From Haemophilus parainfluenzae (lineage in GTDB: Bacteria > Pseudomonadota > Gammaproteobacteria > Enterobacterales > Pasteurellaceae): a stretch of 64,000 nt of DNA. How positions within the stretch are numbered: position 1 is the first letter of the stretch; each line of letters starts with the position of its first letter. Location: positions 12,118 to 76,117 of the forward strand of contig CAUTFW010000005.1 in assembly GCA_963537955.1 (NCBI GenBank), written 5' to 3'. The notes below the pieces were generated by a model. The model was not told where the DNA came from. It did no database searches and worked only from the letters and a program-made list of their open reading frames with translations. Positions 31,251 through 36,533 of this stretch are shown piece after piece. Position numbers and translations under genes: made by a program.

Positions 31251-31934
31251 ATGAATCATTTAGATCGACTAGAACGAAAAATTGGTTATCAATTTTCCGA
31301 TCTAAAAAATTTAAAATTGGCACTGACACACCGCAGTGCCTCCACTCAACATAATGAACGTCTCGAATTTCTAGGTGATTCGATTCTCAATTACGTCATT
31401 GCTGATGCGCTTTATCATCAATTCCCTCGTTGTAATGAAGGTGAACTTAGCCGAATGCGTGCCACATTAGTTCGTGAGCCAACCCTGGCGATAATTGCCC
31501 GCAATTTTGAGCTTGGGGATTATATGTCCTTAGGTTCTGGCGAGTTGAAAAGTGGGGGCTTTCGTCGTGAATCGATTTTGGCGGATTGTGTTGAAGCGGT
31601 AATTGGCGCAATGGCATTAGATTCAAGCTTTGATAAAGCAGCAGATATTGTGCGTAGCTGGTATAAAACGTTACTCGCCGAAATTAAACCGGGTGATAAC
31701 CAAAAAGATGCTAAAACGCGCTTGCAAGAGTATTTACAAGGTAAGCATTTCGCCTTACCAACCTATGAAGTAATCAAAATTGAAGGCGAAGCCCATTGCC
31801 AAACCTTCACCGTAGAATGTACAGTAAAAAATGTACCCAATATTGACCGCACTTTTATTGCGAAAGGTTCTAGCCGCCGTAAAGCAGAACAAGCGGCCGC
31901 AGAACAAATCTTAAAAACATTGGAAATTAAATGA
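31251..31934 (+). CDS. rnc: ribonuclease III
   Basis: Start trimmed to [13 protein letters not shown], directly after the lepB stop. Signature ERLEFLGDS; C-terminal dsRBD. Confidence 0.95.
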
Positions 31935-32845
31935 CCGAATTAAATCAAGAACAAGAGACCTATTGTGGCTTTATCGCTATCGTAGGTCGCCCAAATGTAG
32001 GGAAATCTACCCTGTTAAATAAAATTTTGGGACAAAAAATTTCGATTACATCTCGCAAGGCGCAAACTACGCGTCACCGTATTGTGGGAATTAAAACAGA
32101 AGGTATCTACCAAGAAATTTACGTCGATACGCCGGGACTTCATATTGAAGAAAAACGCGCGATTAACCGTTTAATGAACCGTGCAGCAAGCTCAGCAATC
32201 GGGGATGTGGATCTCATTATTTTTGTTGTAGATGGTACACATTGGAATGCCGATGATGAAATGGTGTTAAATAAATTACGTAATGCGAAAGCACCTGTCG
32301 TACTTGCCATCAACAAAGTTGATAATATTAAGAATAAAGATGATTTATTGCCATTTATTACCGATTTAGGCAGTAAGTTTAACTTTGCTCACATTGTGCC
32401 GATTTCTGCACAACGTGGTAATAACGTGCATCAATTAGAGAAAATTGTTCGTCAATCATTACGTAAAGGCGTTCATCACTTCCCTGAAGATTATGTAACG
32501 GACCGTTCACAGCGTTTTATGGCGTCAGAAATTATTCGTGAAAAATTAATGCGTTTCACAGGGGAAGAGCTACCTTATTCGGTAACGGTTGAAATTGAAC
32601 AATTTAAAGTAAATGAGCGTGGTACTTATGAAATCAATGGCTTGATTTTAGTTGAGCGTGAAGGCCAAAAGAAAATGGTGATCGGTGCTCAAGGACAAAA
32701 AATTAAAACCATTGGTATGGAAGCGCGCGCTGACATGGAACGCTTATTTGATAATAAAGTACACCTTGAACTTTGGGTAAAAGTGAAGTCCGGTTGGGCG
32801 GATGATGAACGTGCCTTAAGAAGTTTAGGTTATATGGATGAATAA
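31931..32845 (+). CDS. era: GTPase Era
   Basis: [10 protein letters not shown]-loop, DTPG, NKVD and a C-terminal KH domain; 4-nt overlap with rnc. Confidence 0.96.
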
Positions 32846-32849
32846 AAAC

Positions 32850-32878
32850 TTGAGTAATACTCTATACTATTCTATTAT
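32850..32878 (+). promoter_or_regulatory. candidate sigma70 promoter for the lipid cassette
   Basis: TTGAGT (32850-32855), 17-nt spacer, TATTAT (32873-32878), about 45 bp upstream of the 32923 start. Confidence 0.35.
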
Positions 32879-32922
32879 TAGCGAAATTTTTATGTTTACT
32901 AATAAAAACAAGGAGATGGTAG

Positions 32923-33528
32923 ATGAGTATCTATGCCTTAAAACCCAAATTTCAAAATTTACTTCGGCCTTTAGTTAGGCAATTAGCGGCAAAAGGCGTA
33001 ACAGCAAATCAAGTTACGCTAATTGCTTGCTTACTTTCAATTTTATTAGGTGTGATTCTCGCACTATTCCCGACATTTTCCACTCTTTTCTTCCTTATTC
33101 CTATTTGGTTGTTTTTGCGTATGGCACTGAATGCTGTTGATGGCATGCTAGCACGTGAATTTAATCAAAAAAGTCGATTAGGGGGCTATCTTAATGAAAT
33201 TACTGATGTCGTCTCTGATGCAGCACTTTACCTTCCTTTTGCTTTTGTCGCGCCTTTTGATGGTATTCAAATCTCAAGTATTATTTGGCTTGCGACGTTG
33301 AGTGAGTTATGTGGCATCTTGGGACAGGTTCAAGGCAAAACGCGTCGTTATGATGGCCCAATGGGTAAAAGTGATCGTGCATTCGTATTTGGTGTACTCG
33401 GTTTACTCTATGCGGTGAATGGTAGTTTACATTCACTTTTCTGGTGGGTAGCCAATATCGTGATTATCTTGCTCATTGTGACTTGTATTAAGCGAGTAAA
33501 AAATGGTTTAGCCGAAGTGACGGAGTAA
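32923..33528 (+). CDS. CDP-alcohol phosphatidyltransferase family protein (YnbA-like)
   Basis: 201-aa polytopic protein with DGMLAR...TDVVSD (a variant of the DGxxAR...DxxxD motif). Same length class as E. coli YnbA (from memory). Confidence 0.8.
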   Translation: MSIYALKPKFQNLLRPLVRQLAAKGVTANQVTLIACLLSILLGVILALFPTFSTLFFLIPIWLFLRMALNAVDGMLAREFNQKSRLGGYLNEITDVVSDAALYLPFAFVAPFDGIQISSIIWLATLSELCGILGQVQGKTRRYDGPMGKSDRAFVFGVLGLLYAVNGSLHSLFWWVANIVIILLIVTCIKRVKNGLAEVTE

Positions 33529-33539
33529 TAGGAGCAACT

Positions 33540-34172
33540 ATGTTAGCGAGATTAATCGATTTTTTATTGTGTCGTTTTGCTTCTTTTATTACAGGCGTTC
33601 GACCACAAGCCGCAATTGCGGAACAATCTTCAGAAGGGCATCGTGTCTATTTTGCCAATCATAATAGTCATGGGGATTTTATCTTACTTTGGATTTCATT
33701 GCCTTATGAAGTAAGAAAACAAACTCGCCCTGTTGCAGGTAAAGATTATTGGACGAAAGGCGCAATTCGTCGCTTTTTAGCCTATAAAGTGTTTAATATG
33801 TTACTGATTGAACGTAATAGCCAAGATCCAAAAGCTGTCATACGACAAATGAGTGAAGCATTAATCAATAACTCCCTGATTATTTTCCCTGAAGGAACTC
33901 GTAAGATGGATGATGATTTGCCGCTTCAACCATTTAAAAGCGGATTGTTTTATTTAGCCAAAGAAAATCCTGATTGTGAGTTTGTGCCCGTTTGGATTAG
34001 TAATATGAATAATGTTTTACCAAAAGGCTTTATTTTACCGATCCCATTATTATGTGATCTGTATATGGGCGAACCATTAAAGATTGAGAACGGAGAGGCT
34101 AAAGAGGCCTTTTTAACACGTGCTCAATCGGCATTATTAAGTTTAAATGTCAGTGAAAAAGGCAAATCTTAG
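33540..34172 (+). CDS. lysophospholipid (1-acyl-glycerol-3-phosphate-type) acyltransferase, PlsC/LPLAT family
   Basis: All four LPLAT blocks are present: ANHNSHGDF (HX4D), LLIER, FPEGTR and FVPVW. Confidence 0.8.
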   Translation: MLARLIDFLLCRFASFITGVRPQAAIAEQSSEGHRVYFANHNSHGDFILLWISLPYEVRKQTRPVAGKDYWTKGAIRRFLAYKVFNMLLIERNSQDPKAVIRQMSEALINNSLIIFPEGTRKMDDDLPLQPFKSGLFYLAKENPDCEFVPVWISNMNNVLPKGFILPIPLLCDLYMGEPLKIENGEAKEAFLTRAQSALLSLNVSEKGKS

Positions 34173-34178
34173 GAGCAA

Positions 34179-35114
34179 ATGATGACAGAAATATGGCAAC
34201 TCTTCAGTGGTTTATTTATCGCCTTAATTTTTGCTTCCTCAGTAGGATATATTTTAAAACGTAGATCGGGCGTGGATACACCAAATAGCGTTATTGATAA
34301 CCTGAATGCTCGTATCAATGCTTGGTGGGTGATGATTGGCATTATCTTTATTGCGAGCTTATTGGGCTTTTATGGCGTGATTGGACTCTTTTTGATTATT
34401 TCATTTATGGGATTACGTGAGTTTCTTTCTCTATTGAATATTCGTCGAGGCGATCATCTTGCACTAGCAGCCTGTTTTTATGTGATCTTGCCATTGCAAT
34501 ATTTTTTAGTCGCCATTGATTGGTTTAGCATGTTCACGATTTTCATTCCAGTATATGGCTTCTTATTTTTACCGATTCTTTCGGCATTACTCGGCGATCC
34601 GGCACATTTCTTAGACCGTTCAACGAAAATTCAGTGGGCATTGATGATTAGTGTATTCTGTATTTCACATATCCCCGCTTTATTGACCCTTGATATCTCT
34701 GGTCATGAAGGAAAAAATCTTTTATTAATGATCTTCTTAATCTTGATAGTACAGTCAAGTGATGTGTTGCAATACGTTTGGGGTAAACTTTTTGGTAAGC
34801 ATAAAATTGCACCAACCTTATCGCCATCTAAAACGGTAGAAGGGTTTGTTGGTGGGGTATTAAGTGCAAGTTTATTAGGGATGTTGCTTCATTGGTTGAC
34901 ACCATTTAATGCATGGCAAGCCTTTTTAATGAGTCTATTAATTTGCTTAATGGGATTCTTAGGTGGACTCGTGATGTCAGCAATGAAACGCAGTATGGGT
35001 GTGAAAGACTGGGGGAATATGATTAGTGGCCATGGTGGTATTTTAGATCGTATGGATTCACTTTGTTTCTCTGCACCTATTTTCTTCCATGTGGTGCGCT
35101 ATTTCTGGGCCTAG
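34179..35114 (+). CDS. phosphatidate cytidylyltransferase family protein (CdsA paralogue, YnbB-like)
   Basis: C-terminal signature SAMKRSMGVKDWGNMISGHGGILDRMDS matches the CTP-transferase-1 pattern; polytopic. Start may be either of the two adjacent ATG codons. Confidence 0.85.
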   Translation: MMTEIWQLFSGLFIALIFASSVGYILKRRSGVDTPNSVIDNLNARINAWWVMIGIIFIASLLGFYGVIGLFLIISFMGLREFLSLLNIRRGDHLALAACFYVILPLQYFLVAIDWFSMFTIFIPVYGFLFLPILSALLGDPAHFLDRSTKIQWALMISVFCISHIPALLTLDISGHEGKNLLLMIFLILIVQSSDVLQYVWGKLFGKHKIAPTLSPSKTVEGFVGGVLSASLLGMLLHWLTPFNAWQAFLMSLLICLMGFLGGLVMSAMKRSMGVKDWGNMISGHGGILDRMDSLCFSAPIFFHVVRYFWA

Positions 35115-35134
35115 TTATAAATCATGAAATAAAA

Positions 35135-35160
35135 AAAGAGCGGTTAATTAACCGCTCTTT
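35135..35160. terminator. bidirectional terminator between the lipid cassette and alaA
   Basis: AAAGAGCGGTTAATTAACCGCTCTTT is a perfect palindrome flanked by A7 and T6. Confidence 0.85.
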
Positions 35161-35164
35161 TTTA

Positions 35165-36379
35165 TTATTGACGATAAGTCTCTAAGAATCGTGCCAATTT
35201 GCCAATGGCTTCTTCTAATTGACCGGTATAAGGAAGTGTCACCACACGGAAGTGATCCGGTGAGTGCCAGTTAAAGCCTTTACCATGCACAAGAAGTACT
35301 TTCTCTTTACGTAATAAATCGAGCACAAATTTTTCATCACTATGAATGTTGAATTTTTGGATATCGAGTTTCGGGAACATATACATCGCCCCCATTGGTT
35401 TTACGCAACTAATACCCGGGATTTCAGTCAGTAACTCATAGGCTTTATTGCGTTGTTCCAGCAAACGACCACCCGGTTGAACAAATTCATTAATACTTTG
35501 ATAGCCACCTAATGCGGTTTGAATGGCGTGCTGCATTGGTACGTTTGCACATAAACGCATAGACGCCAACATATCCAAGCCTTCAATATAGCCTTTAGCA
35601 TGTTGTTTCGGCCCATTTAAAATCATCCAACCTTGACGGAAGCCCGCAACACGATACGCTTTTGATAAGCCATTGAATGTAATGGTTAATACATCTGGGG
35701 CAAGAGCAGCAATATGATGGTGGACAGCACCATCGTAGAGAATTTTGTCATAAATTTCATCTGCAAAAATAATCAGATTATTTTCACGTGCAACTTGGAT
35801 AATTTCTTCAAGTAATTCTTTGCTATAAACCGCACCTGTTGGGTTATTCGGGTTGATCACGACGATAGCTTTAGTTTTGGCATTGACTTTTGCACGAATA
35901 TCATCAATAGCTGGGAACCAACCAGACTCTTCATCACATAAATAATGTACGGCATTTCCGCCTGCTAACGTCACAGCCGCTGTCCATAACGGATAGTCTG
36001 GCATTGGAACTAATACTTCATCACCATCATTGAGAAGGGCTTGCATGGACATGGTAATCAATTCAGATACACCATTCCCGATGTACACATCGTTTACTGT
36101 CGCATCATGAATACCTTTAGATTGATAGTATTGCACGATAGCCTTACGTGCCGAATATAACCCTTTGGAATCGCAATAACCTTGTGCAGAGGGGAGGTTG
36201 CGGATAACATCAACTAAAATTTCATCAGGCGCTTCAAAACCAAATGGGGCAGGGTTGCCGATATTAAGTTTTAAGATTTTGTTGCCTTCTTCTTCTAGGC
36301 GTAAAGCTTCTTTGTGAACCGGTCCACGAATATCGTAGCAAACGTGTTCTAATTTGTCTGATTTCGGAAAAGATCTCAT
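35165..36379 (-). CDS. alaA: glutamate-pyruvate aminotransferase AlaA
   Basis: Strong match to AlaA (KLEHVCYDIRGPV, LKLNIGNPAPFGF) with PLP lysine in LSKAYRVAGFR. Start trimmed to MRSFPKSDK with an AGGA RBS. Confidence 0.9.
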   Translation of the reverse strand: MRSFPKSDKLEHVCYDIRGPVHKEALRLEEEGNKILKLNIGNPAPFGFEAPDEILVDVIRNLPSAQGYCDSKGLYSARKAIVQYYQSKGIHDATVNDVYIGNGVSELITMSMQALLNDGDEVLVPMPDYPLWTAAVTLAGGNAVHYLCDEESGWFPAIDDIRAKVNAKTKAIVVINPNNPTGAVYSKELLEEIIQVARENNLIIFADEIYDKILYDGAVHHHIAALAPDVLTITFNGLSKAYRVAGFRQGWMILNGPKQHAKGYIEGLDMLASMRLCANVPMQHAIQTALGGYQSINEFVQPGGRLLEQRNKAYELLTEIPGISCVKPMGAMYMFPKLDIQKFNIHSDEKFVLDLLRKEKVLLVHGKGFNWHSPDHFRVVTLPYTGQLEEAIGKLARFLETYRQ

Positions 36380-36533
36380 TAGTAACATCCTATGATAATT
36401 AGATTTTCATTCAAAAATTATGTCTAATTTACGCTTAAATTCTTATCTTGAAAAGATTTAATAAAAAAATTTTTTGAATGTATTAAAGTGCGGTAGAATA
36501 TGGGCTAATTTTTTGTGTGTTTTATTATTTTTC

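Follow-up and report, generated by a model that had tools for sequence, protein, structure and literature searches.

A minimal three-gene variant of the ynb-type accessory lipid cassette in Haemophilus parainfluenzae

In Escherichia coli, the ynb genes belong to the few lipid-synthesis-like genes that still lack a characterised function, and our literature search found no functional study of ynbA, ynbC, ynbD or the three-gene cluster described here. What has been reported concerns E. coli YnbB, a CdsA paralogue dedicated to MPIase, a glycolipid that represents its sole reported role: overproduction of YnbB raises MPIase, and the protein cannot complement a cdsA knockout or replace CdsA for bulk lipid synthesis (PMC6362211). 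YnbB is also cold-induced (PMC6362211; PMC11413397), and a contribution to MPIase levels has been shown for the E. coli protein only (PMC6362211). In strain K-12, the genes ynbABCD (b1408-b1411) form a non-essential accessory cluster. A fuller cassette, with the widespread order ynbA, ynbC, ynbD, a small membrane ORF, an LPLAT/AGPAT-family acyltransferase gene (LPLAT) and ynbB, is carried by Pseudomonas, Xanthomonadales, Burkholderiales, some Pasteurellaceae and Campylobacter, and has been labelled a "membrane phospholipid remodelling module" in P. protegens (PMC13541209). Its logic resembles that of bacterial PIP synthases such as M. tuberculosis PgsA1 and Bacteroides BT_1523/BT_1525 (PMC9246714), where CDP-DAG and a phosphorylated alcohol are joined before a phosphatase acts. 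The housekeeping PlsC-CdsA-PgsA route draws on the same three superfamilies as the core of these cassettes and could give LPA, PA, CDP-DAG and then phosphatidyl-X.

Here we compare these systems with a locus in a 64,000-nt stretch of Haemophilus parainfluenzae contig CAUTFW010000005.1 (the window), where three co-directional, intact ORFs on the + strand begin 77 bp past the era stop codon. The features of the locus are as follows:

32850-32878, + strand: promoter-like hexamers TTGAGT-17-TATTAT in the era-ynbA gap, a weak consensus match (9/12)
32923-33528, + strand: ynbA orthologue, 201 aa (PF01066, 28.7 bits)
33540-34172, + strand: LPLAT/AGPAT-family acyltransferase gene, 210 aa (PF01553, 60 bits)
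34179-35114, + strand: ynbB orthologue, a CdsA-family cytidylyltransferase paralogue, 311 aa (PF01148, 246.8 bits)
35132-35163, both strands: bidirectional intrinsic terminator, A6-GAGCGGTTAATTAACCGCTC-T6, from the terminator scan
35165-36388, - strand: alaA-like aminotransferase gene, convergent with the cassette

The cassette genes are separated by 11 bp (ynbA-LPLAT) and 6 bp (LPLAT-ynbB), and an AGGAG-type ribosome-binding site precedes all three of them. The tightly spaced membrane-lipid-type genes that the initial annotation had placed directly after era are thus present as described, with the motifs quoted for them (DGMLAR...TDVVSD, HNSHGD, LLIER, FPEGTR, VPV and SAMKRSMGVKDWGNMISGHGGILDRMD). 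The palindrome reported at 35135-35160 was also recovered, and the terminator scan widens its stem to 35132-35163, with 14 pairs including five GC pairs. Runs of A and T lie on either side of this stem, and the terminator is therefore bidirectional and common to the cassette and the convergent aminotransferase gene. Promoter-consensus matches are rarer in the region than in shuffled sequence, which leaves the candidate at 32850-32878 weakly supported. Moreover, the scan found no terminator in the 77-bp gap between era and ynbA; therefore, transcriptional read-through from rnc-era is also possible.

The first and third proteins had been related to E. coli ynbA-ynbB, and this relationship proved to be one of orthology. 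YnbA shares 47% identity with K-12 YnbA (b1408) over the full length of 201 aa, the same size in both, and falls into the YnbA orthologous group by full-length similarity, size, invariant residues and a ynbB gene in the same operon; the N-D-N-D signature is common to both proteins. YnbB is 39% identical to E. coli YnbB (b1409) over 301 aa, compared with 30% over 259 aa to the CdsA of its own genome. Unlike the window, where LPLAT lies between ynbA and ynbB, K-12 has ynbC and ynbD and no acyltransferase. The three core proteins are 44-76% identical to those of the full cassettes, which share the variant YnbA signature and the position of LPLAT immediately upstream of ynbB, whereas the window is without the hydrolase-methyltransferase, the phosphatase and the small membrane protein.

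YnbA matches PF01066 above the cut-off of 22 bits, over profile positions 3-149 of 152. Its AlphaFold2 model (pLDDT 93.2, pTM 0.86) retrieved CDP-alcohol phosphotransferases as all top Foldseek matches, with PIP synthases as the best and closest solved folds (TM 0.72-0.79), while PgsA folds matched at just TM 0.52-0.54. The model therefore predicts a six-helix class I CDP-alcohol phosphotransferase fold that is PIP-synthase-like. The description of the first protein as an ordinary CDP-alcohol phosphatidyltransferase holds for family and fold but not for the canonical signature. In an alignment to M. tuberculosis PgsA1, asparagines replace the first and third aspartates of the class I four-aspartate, two-metal signature (D1 = N70, D3 = N91), D73 (D2) and D95 (D4) are retained, and D99 is an additional aspartate. 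The resulting variant, N70-x2-D73-G-x2-A-R-x8-G-x3-N91-E92-x2-D95-x3-D99, is encoded at nt 33130-33219. Both asparagines are conserved in 60 of 60 type-1 homologues and in almost all YnbA family members examined. The invariant residues of the family are N70, D73, N91, E92, D95 and D99, together with a block comprising R141, Y143, G145, P146, G148, K149, S150, D151 and R152. Within this block (RYDGPxGKSDRA), R152 aligns with Arg155 of PIP synthase, which binds phosphate (PMC6506517). We rejected a loss of the catalytic base in YnbA, since the proposed base is D4 (D93 in PgsA1; PMC6506517), retained as D95, and not the substituted D3. Based on sequence, the two-Asn metal site could mean a chemistry other than classical phosphatidyl transfer, and the family-wide loss of two metal-binding aspartates points away from the known phospholipid head-group transferases.

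The equivalog models place YnbA outside the characterised enzymes. It scored 22.5 bits on the PgsA model TIGR00560 (cut-off 109.1) and is not PgsA. The PIP and archaetidylinositol-phosphate synthase models were the best-scoring characterised families, with scores far below their cut-offs (NF045883, 49.4 versus 170; NF040950, 68.9 versus 180). Furthermore, the inositol-phosphate-binding R94 of PgsA1 is replaced by V96, and no inositol-1-phosphate synthase (PF01658) was detected in the genome by a search that gave matches in control genomes. On these grounds, inositol phosphate is an unlikely acceptor for YnbA.

The second protein belongs to the LPLAT/AGPAT family by its profile match (cut-off 23 bits), its HX4D dyad HNSHGD (H41-x4-D46, nt 33660-33677) and the acceptor-binding EGTR of the FPEGTR block (F116-P-E-G-T-R121); H41, D46, E118, G119 and R121 are invariant in an alignment of 13 diverse homologues. 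It lies below the equivalog cut-offs for housekeeping PlsC (TIGR00530, 39.9 versus 102.95; PRK15018, 19.7 versus 501), and its substrate is therefore not fixed by family assignment. A PDB sequence search with LPLAT gave no match at E <= 0.01. YnbB is placed in the CdsA family by its profile match (cut-off 24 bits) and by the intact C-terminal catalytic signature SAMKRSMGVKDWGNMISGHGGILDRMD at residues 267-293 (nt 34977-35057), which matches the CDP-diglyceride synthase signature pattern; its alignment with T. maritima CdsA (4Q2G) spans the whole protein. It groups with YnbB rather than CdsA, with the N-terminal half included: E. coli YnbB used as query found the cassette gene as its best match in the genome (187 bits; CdsA, 89 bits), whereas the housekeeping model PRK11624 scored 100 against 385 and covered the C-terminal half alone. 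The link of YnbB to MPIase named in the initial annotation is present in the literature (PMC6362211; Sato 2019, cited in PMC11413397).

The cassette genes are not the only plsC, cdsA and pgsA/pssA homologues of the genome, in agreement with the earlier proposal of a route separate from the housekeeping set. A second PF01148 gene, located between uppS and rseP homologues, is the true cdsA (PRK11624, 301.7), and a true pgsA (TIGR00560, 214 bits) and plsC (TIGR00530, 163 bits; PRK15018, 347) lie elsewhere, together with plsB, an aas-like gene and two PLD-type pssA/cls-like genes. The cassette proteins share just 27-33% local identity with these enzymes and score under the equivalog thresholds. 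Given the separate housekeeping genes, the triad represents additional paralogues and the cassette is accessory, beyond the normal phospholipid genes; an internal deletion in a congener and the limited distribution of type-1 YnbA (both below) also speak for accessory status.

In a survey of 77 loci from several phyla, ynbB came immediately after LPLAT in every one of them, with a 4-bp stop/start overlap in about 26, and about half of the loci had LPLAT together with ynbC/ynbD. LPLAT is thus a core member of the cassette and the constant upstream partner of YnbB, and the suggestion that the acyltransferase takes the place of ynbC/ynbD does not stand. A YnbA-type gene with the two-Asn signature lies beside the LPLAT-ynbB pair in nearly all loci with full flanks. 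The tree calls for at least 10 switches between the triad and five- or six-gene forms, by gain or loss of ynbC/ynbD, which shows that YnbA, LPLAT and YnbB work without YnbC and YnbD. Neisseria, Azotobacter, Rhodanobacter and other bacteria have triads arranged in the same way. In the H. parainfluenzae genome, tblastn with Pasteurellaceae, E. coli and Campylobacter queries detected no ynbC, ynbD or small membrane ORF, and the locus is therefore not the six-gene form but a reduced form of the widespread ynb cassette, in which LPLAT has not replaced ynbC/ynbD. That the triad is the minimal core form of a ynb-type accessory lipid cassette is essentially certain. Type-1 YnbA is restricted to 32 of 401 sampled Pseudomonadota species (about 8%), and within Pasteurellaceae the triad occurs in 19 of 50 genera. 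A DNA-level search of E. coli genomes matched three plasmids only, over 137 nt of the cdsA-like gene, and so pointed to the cassette on plasmid NZ_CP027341, an IS66-flanked version with the order ynbA-ynbB-LPLAT-ynbC.

We infer that the triad probably acts as a minimal ynb core which makes a minor, non-essential lipid via LPLAT, YnbB and YnbA. LPLAT, as a soluble or peripheral enzyme, would acylate a lyso-phosphatidate-type acceptor to supply a phosphatidate pool, which YnbB would convert with CTP to CDP-diacylglycerol; YnbA, with its less acidic Asn-Asp-Asn-Asp metal site, would then transfer the phosphatidyl group to an acceptor X. From the motifs and families, such a route from lyso-PA through PA and CDP-DAG to phosphatidyl-X is plausible. 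The acceptor would probably be small and anionic, as suggested by the alignment of R152 with the phosphate-binding Arg155 and by the phosphatase partner in full cassettes. LPLAT has been placed in the route by gene adjacency alone; it could also act upstream in the route, or take the product or the head group as its substrate. The route would yield a minor membrane lipid beside those of the PlsB/PlsC-CdsA-PgsA/PssA pathway, and in fuller cassettes this lipid may be further processed by YnbC (hydrolase-methyltransferase), YnbD (PAP2/dual-specificity phosphatase) and the small membrane protein. Since H. parainfluenzae is without these three, its pathway would end at phosphatidyl-X (or its phosphate) or use host enzymes. 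This makes the window a test case for the irreducible core (YnbA, LPLAT, YnbB) in a small, naturally transformable genome, where the lack of downstream processing genes and a complete, separate housekeeping pathway are useful for finding the primary product. A bolder idea, to which we give a small chance, is that YnbA-type Asn-Asp-Asn-Asp transferases form a distinct, unrecognised class, with a private LPLAT and CdsA paralogue channelling CDP-DAG onto a phosphorylated acceptor, e.g. a sugar-1-phosphate. If so, they would yield an anionic lipid, either pyrophosphate-linked or of some other undescribed type, similar to the first intermediate proposed for MPIase in E. coli, and the H. parainfluenzae triad would represent the smallest set of enzymes with which many bacteria make such lipids.

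Other explanations have to be weighed against this minimal lipid-making core. The triad might build an MPIase-type anchor, with YnbB making CDP-DAG and YnbA (or YnbB) transferring phosphatidyl to a sugar-1-phosphate, to give a GlcNAc-PP-DAG-like glycolipid that aids membrane protein insertion, e.g. in the cold. The E. coli YnbB data are the sole experiments on any ynb-family gene (PMC6362211; PMC11413397), and a phosphate-ester acceptor would fit the less acidic N70/N91 site and the retained phosphate-binding Arg. However, in the published model CdsA and YnbB themselves make compound I, and YnbA is nowhere mentioned (PMC6362211). Deletion of ynbB in E. coli barely alters MPIase, which has been described in that species only and not in Pasteurellaceae, and the constant LPLAT partner is left unexplained, so that we regard an MPIase-type anchor as unlikely. 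Alternatively, the pathway and product could be as proposed, but with LPLAT acting last by re-acylating a lyso-product or acylating the head group, and with no phosphatidate fed to YnbB. The lipase-type hydrolase YnbC of full cassettes would yield lyso-lipids for this step, and in mycobacteria the acyltransferase gene patA, whose product acts on PIMs, adjoins the PIP synthase gene pgsA1. The association of LPLAT with ynbB, and not with ynbA or ynbC, in all surveyed loci, its retention in many triads that lack YnbC and the purifying selection on it make a terminal role for LPLAT decidedly unlikely.

Redundant isozymes of PlsC, CdsA and PgsA that serve only as a reserve, in certain conditions, for the bulk synthesis of phosphatidylglycerol or phospholipids would account for the shared superfamilies, and the phosphatase of fuller cassettes would suit a PGP-like intermediate. 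Yet the YnbA signature is altered family-wide, its score on the pgsA model is far below the cut-off and its fold is nearer to PIP synthases than to PgsA; LPLAT and YnbB are also far under the PlsC and CdsA cut-offs, and E. coli YnbB does not complement a cdsA knockout (PMC6362211). We therefore consider a backup function improbable. Finally, the triad could be what is left of a larger cluster that has lost its function and is decaying: the genome has no ynbC, ynbD or small ORF, an internal deletion has removed 1.38 kb at the corresponding site in one congener, and ynbA is interrupted by stops or frameshifts in several Pasteurellaceae. Decay is nevertheless hardly credible for this locus, given its intact reading frames and catalytic motifs, the recurrence of the layout in genera such as Neisseria and Azotobacter, an intact cassette in seven of eight sampled genomes of the genus and low pN/pS values against a conspecific genome (ynbA, 0.07; LPLAT, 0.11; ynbB, 0.03). 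Purifying selection acts on each of the three genes, and the cassette is kept by selection in H. parainfluenzae, in line with the minimal lipid-making core that we favour.

A recent acquisition is not supported by composition or by missing uptake sequences: the cassette has the same GC and GC3 as its flanking genes, and the USS-free gap of 4.6 kb, the longest in the window, is within chance expectation (about 1.6 such gaps). In the tree, the clade that contains the window cassette is sister to Campylobacter cassettes (SH-aLRT 99). A single Pasteurellaceae clade was rejected by an AU test (delta lnL 195, p about 1e-31) for which the group was chosen after the tree had been seen, and the AT-richness of Campylobacter and Pasteurellaceae might draw them together. 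The grouping with the Campylobacter versions indicates horizontal transfer of the cassette, which may have spread in this way among mucosa-associated bacteria.

Directly downstream of era, the cassette comprises three forward-strand genes, and the three ORFs, every motif and the palindromic terminator reported in the initial annotation were all recovered:

31931-32845, era, upstream neighbour of the cassette
32850-32878, weak promoter-like site in the era-ynbA gap
32923-33528, + strand, ynbA orthologue, 201 aa (Pfam CDP-OH_P_transf, 28.7 bits; cut-off 22)
33540-34172, + strand, LPLAT, a small PlsC-type acyltransferase, 210 aa (Pfam Acyltransferase, 60 bits)
34179-35114, + strand, ynbB orthologue, 311 aa (Pfam CTP_transf_1, 246.8 bits)
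35132-35163, terminator from the terminator scan, 14-pair stem with A and T runs on either side

The spacing between era and ynbA is 77 bp, the terminator scan of the region found no terminator between them, and the gaps within the triad are 11 and 6 bp, with an AGGAG-type ribosome-binding site before each cassette gene. The downstream terminator is shared with a convergent aminotransferase gene. YnbA is 47% identical over its full length to its E. coli K-12 counterpart (both 201 aa). E. coli YnbB shares 39% identity with the third protein, and its best match in the source genome is the cassette gene and not cdsA. E. coli K-12 lacks a counterpart of the acyltransferase.

The cassette is an additional pathway rather than a housekeeping one. 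Its genes are not the sole plsC, cdsA and pgsA/pssA homologues in the source genome (1.94 Mb, 99.6% complete), which carries a complete set of housekeeping genes: a second PF01148 gene flanked by uppS and rseP homologues (CdsA model, 301.7 bits), true pgsA (TIGR00560, 214 bits) and plsC (TIGR00530, 163 bits) genes elsewhere, plsB, an aas-like gene and two PLD-type proteins that match pssA and cls in size. One alternative is that the cassette enzymes are simply redundant with these. Local identity to the housekeeping enzymes is only 27–33%, and since this separate set is present and the cassette proteins score far under the equivalog cut-offs, we regard the cassette as an extra pathway. In E. 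coli, YnbB does not substitute for CdsA in bulk lipid supply, ynbB deletion has marginal effects, YnbB is induced in the cold, and its overproduction raises the glycolipid MPIase (Nishiyama group; PMC6362211, PMC11413397). This last result bears on a second alternative, in which the cassette makes an MPIase-type pyrophosphate glycolipid. The reading with the best support is a dedicated lipid branch of three steps, in which LPLAT would supply phosphatidate, YnbB would convert it to CDP-diacylglycerol and YnbA would attach a head group to give a phosphatidyl lipid; the product would be minor and dispensable. Each of these chemical steps is inferred, as is the point at which LPLAT acts, and LPLAT might act on the product instead of upstream.

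Genetic decay of the cassette is a further possibility. In a congener (G038), an internal deletion of 1.38 kb, corresponding to window positions 33397-34775, has reduced ynbA and ynbB to stumps between era and alaA, and the cassette is therefore dispensable in that lineage. The stumps encode 93 aa of YnbA and 98 aa of YnbB (L018:5262-5935). Four other Pasteurellaceae genomes (G128, G098, G026 and G059) carry ynbA with one stop or a frameshift. The cassette is 95–97% identical to H. parainfluenzae sequences, and its pN/pS values against a conspecific genome are 0.07 for ynbA, 0.11 for LPLAT and 0.03 for ynbB; therefore, the three genes are kept by purifying selection.

That the trio is conserved as a unit was apparent from a wider survey, in which an LPLAT profile run on one genome per species returned 80 loci from Pseudomonas, Xanthomonadales, Burkholderiales, Rhodocyclales, Rhizobiales, Rhodobacterales, Neisseria, Campylobacter, Cardiobacteriaceae and several non-proteobacterial phyla. 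A same-strand ynbB lies immediately 3′ of LPLAT in all 77 loci with room for it, and in about 26 of them the LPLAT stop and the ynbB start share a 4-bp overlap. Among 52 loci with full flanks, 25 also carry ynbA, ynbC and ynbD, 21 are triads and six show other combinations. Because LPLAT is YnbB's constant partner and also occurs alongside ynbC and ynbD, it is no substitute for them. The initial annotation was largely right about an accessory lipid cassette with YnbA/YnbB kinship, and its view of the acyltransferase as a replacement for ynbC/ynbD did not hold. Neisseria weaveri has the A-LPLAT-B order of the window and Campylobacter curvus the order A-LPLAT-B-C-D. In long forms, the ~440 bp between ynbD and LPLAT encode a conserved small membrane protein, giving six genes in total. 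Its common core reads ...YLH[IV]R..FD...F......LD..L..L......G[AT]..L...; the ORF (~120–150 aa, no Pfam match on record) follows ynbD in Campylobacter. Examples are:

L013:7068-7451, L027:5949-6347 and L048:5536-5991, + strand, small membrane ORF
L012:5095-5454, - strand, small membrane ORF

This ORF is absent from triads and E. coli K-12, and a search of the whole source genome found neither it nor ynbC or ynbD. The three form an optional module, and the H. parainfluenzae cassette is a minimal-form instance of a widespread, already annotated cassette. A P. protegens genomics paper named the long form a phospholipid remodelling module, giving no data (PMC13541209). E. coli ynbA is a BglJ-RcsB target silenced by H-NS (PMC3950696), and our literature search found no functional study of YnbA, YnbC, YnbD or the acyltransferase.

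Of the 151 Pasteurellaceae species sampled, 56 have LPLAT and 43 have YnbA; fetched loci show the ynbA-ynbC-ynbD-LPLAT-ynbB long form, triads, LPLAT-less and split layouts. One long cassette (G019; L011:6123-8361) has an extra ~2.2 kb between ynbC and ynbD. The cassette has spread horizontally. In a tree of LPLAT plus YnbB (91 rows), the window groups with other Pasteurellaceae triads (SH-aLRT 98), Campylobacter cassettes are sister to this clade (99), and both nest, together with Neisseriaceae, Cardiobacteriaceae and the other Pasteurellaceae forms, inside a clade that is host-associated (100). Given its strongly supported branches, the tree requires triad and long forms to have interchanged at least 10 times. 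An AU test rejected monophyly of the Pasteurellaceae forms (delta lnL 195, p ~1e-31), the group having been chosen only after the tree was seen and AT-rich composition possibly adding to the grouping. Direct evidence of travel on mobile DNA comes from E. coli plasmid NZ_CP027341, where ynbA-ynbB-LPLAT-ynbC lies on an IS66-flanked stretch; its LPLAT is 32% identical to that of the cassette. Three E. coli plasmids carry such a cluster (L010 in NZ_CP027341.1, 52460-56377). The cassette showed no compositional sign of recent arrival. It lies with alaA in the window's longest run free of the uptake signal AAGTGCGGT (31846-36486, 4,640 bp), which is not significant, ~1.6 such runs being expected per window at the genome-wide 1 per 1,363 bp. 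The cassette of OZ240079.1 (L061; a 7.1-Mb record labelled Leclercia tamurae, ‘chromosome: N4’) is nearly the same as those of Pseudomonas species on the tree (branch length 0.028), and the record may be a mislabelled or mixed assembly or may reflect a very recent transfer.

YnbA carries an altered active-site signature. M. tuberculosis PIP synthase PgsA1 binds two metals through D68, D71, D89 and D93, D93 being the proposed catalytic base and R94 binding inositol phosphate (PMC6506517). In our alignment, these correspond to N70, D73, N91, D95 and V96 of YnbA. This Asn-Asp-Asn-Asp arrangement, after which come an invariant Glu and one more Asp, is present in 60/60 homologues of the cassette YnbA's own type (type 1) from the loci, and in nearly all of the best 150 of 1901 cluster representatives (E <= 1e-3). 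Among 401 Pseudomonadota species sampled, 32 have a type-1 YnbA. The confident AlphaFold2 model (pLDDT 93.2) best matches PIP synthases (TM 0.72–0.79; PgsA 0.52–0.54), and the phosphate-binding Arg155 of PIP synthase corresponds to invariant R152 within an invariant RYDGPxGKSDRA block. No inositol-1-phosphate synthase was found in the source genome. We infer that the putative metal site would have two negative charges fewer and that YnbA may transfer phosphatidyl groups to an acceptor that is anionic but is not inositol phosphate. A second, more divergent transferase type (NLxDGMVA[VI]E...), with both asparagines in 19/19 members, is encoded alongside LPLAT-ynbB in alphaproteobacteria and in some Pasteurellaceae and may use a different acceptor. 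In its fuller motif, NLxDGMVA[VI]E...G...NExPDR..D, Val or Ile replaces the signature Arg. The order is LPLAT-ynbB-transferase in Rhizobiales and Rhodobacterales, and the type also occurs in some Xanthomonadales; examples are:

L019:4633-5394, L020:4674-5333 and L023:5227-5868, second-type transferase
L057, L064 and L067, alphaproteobacterial loci with the second type
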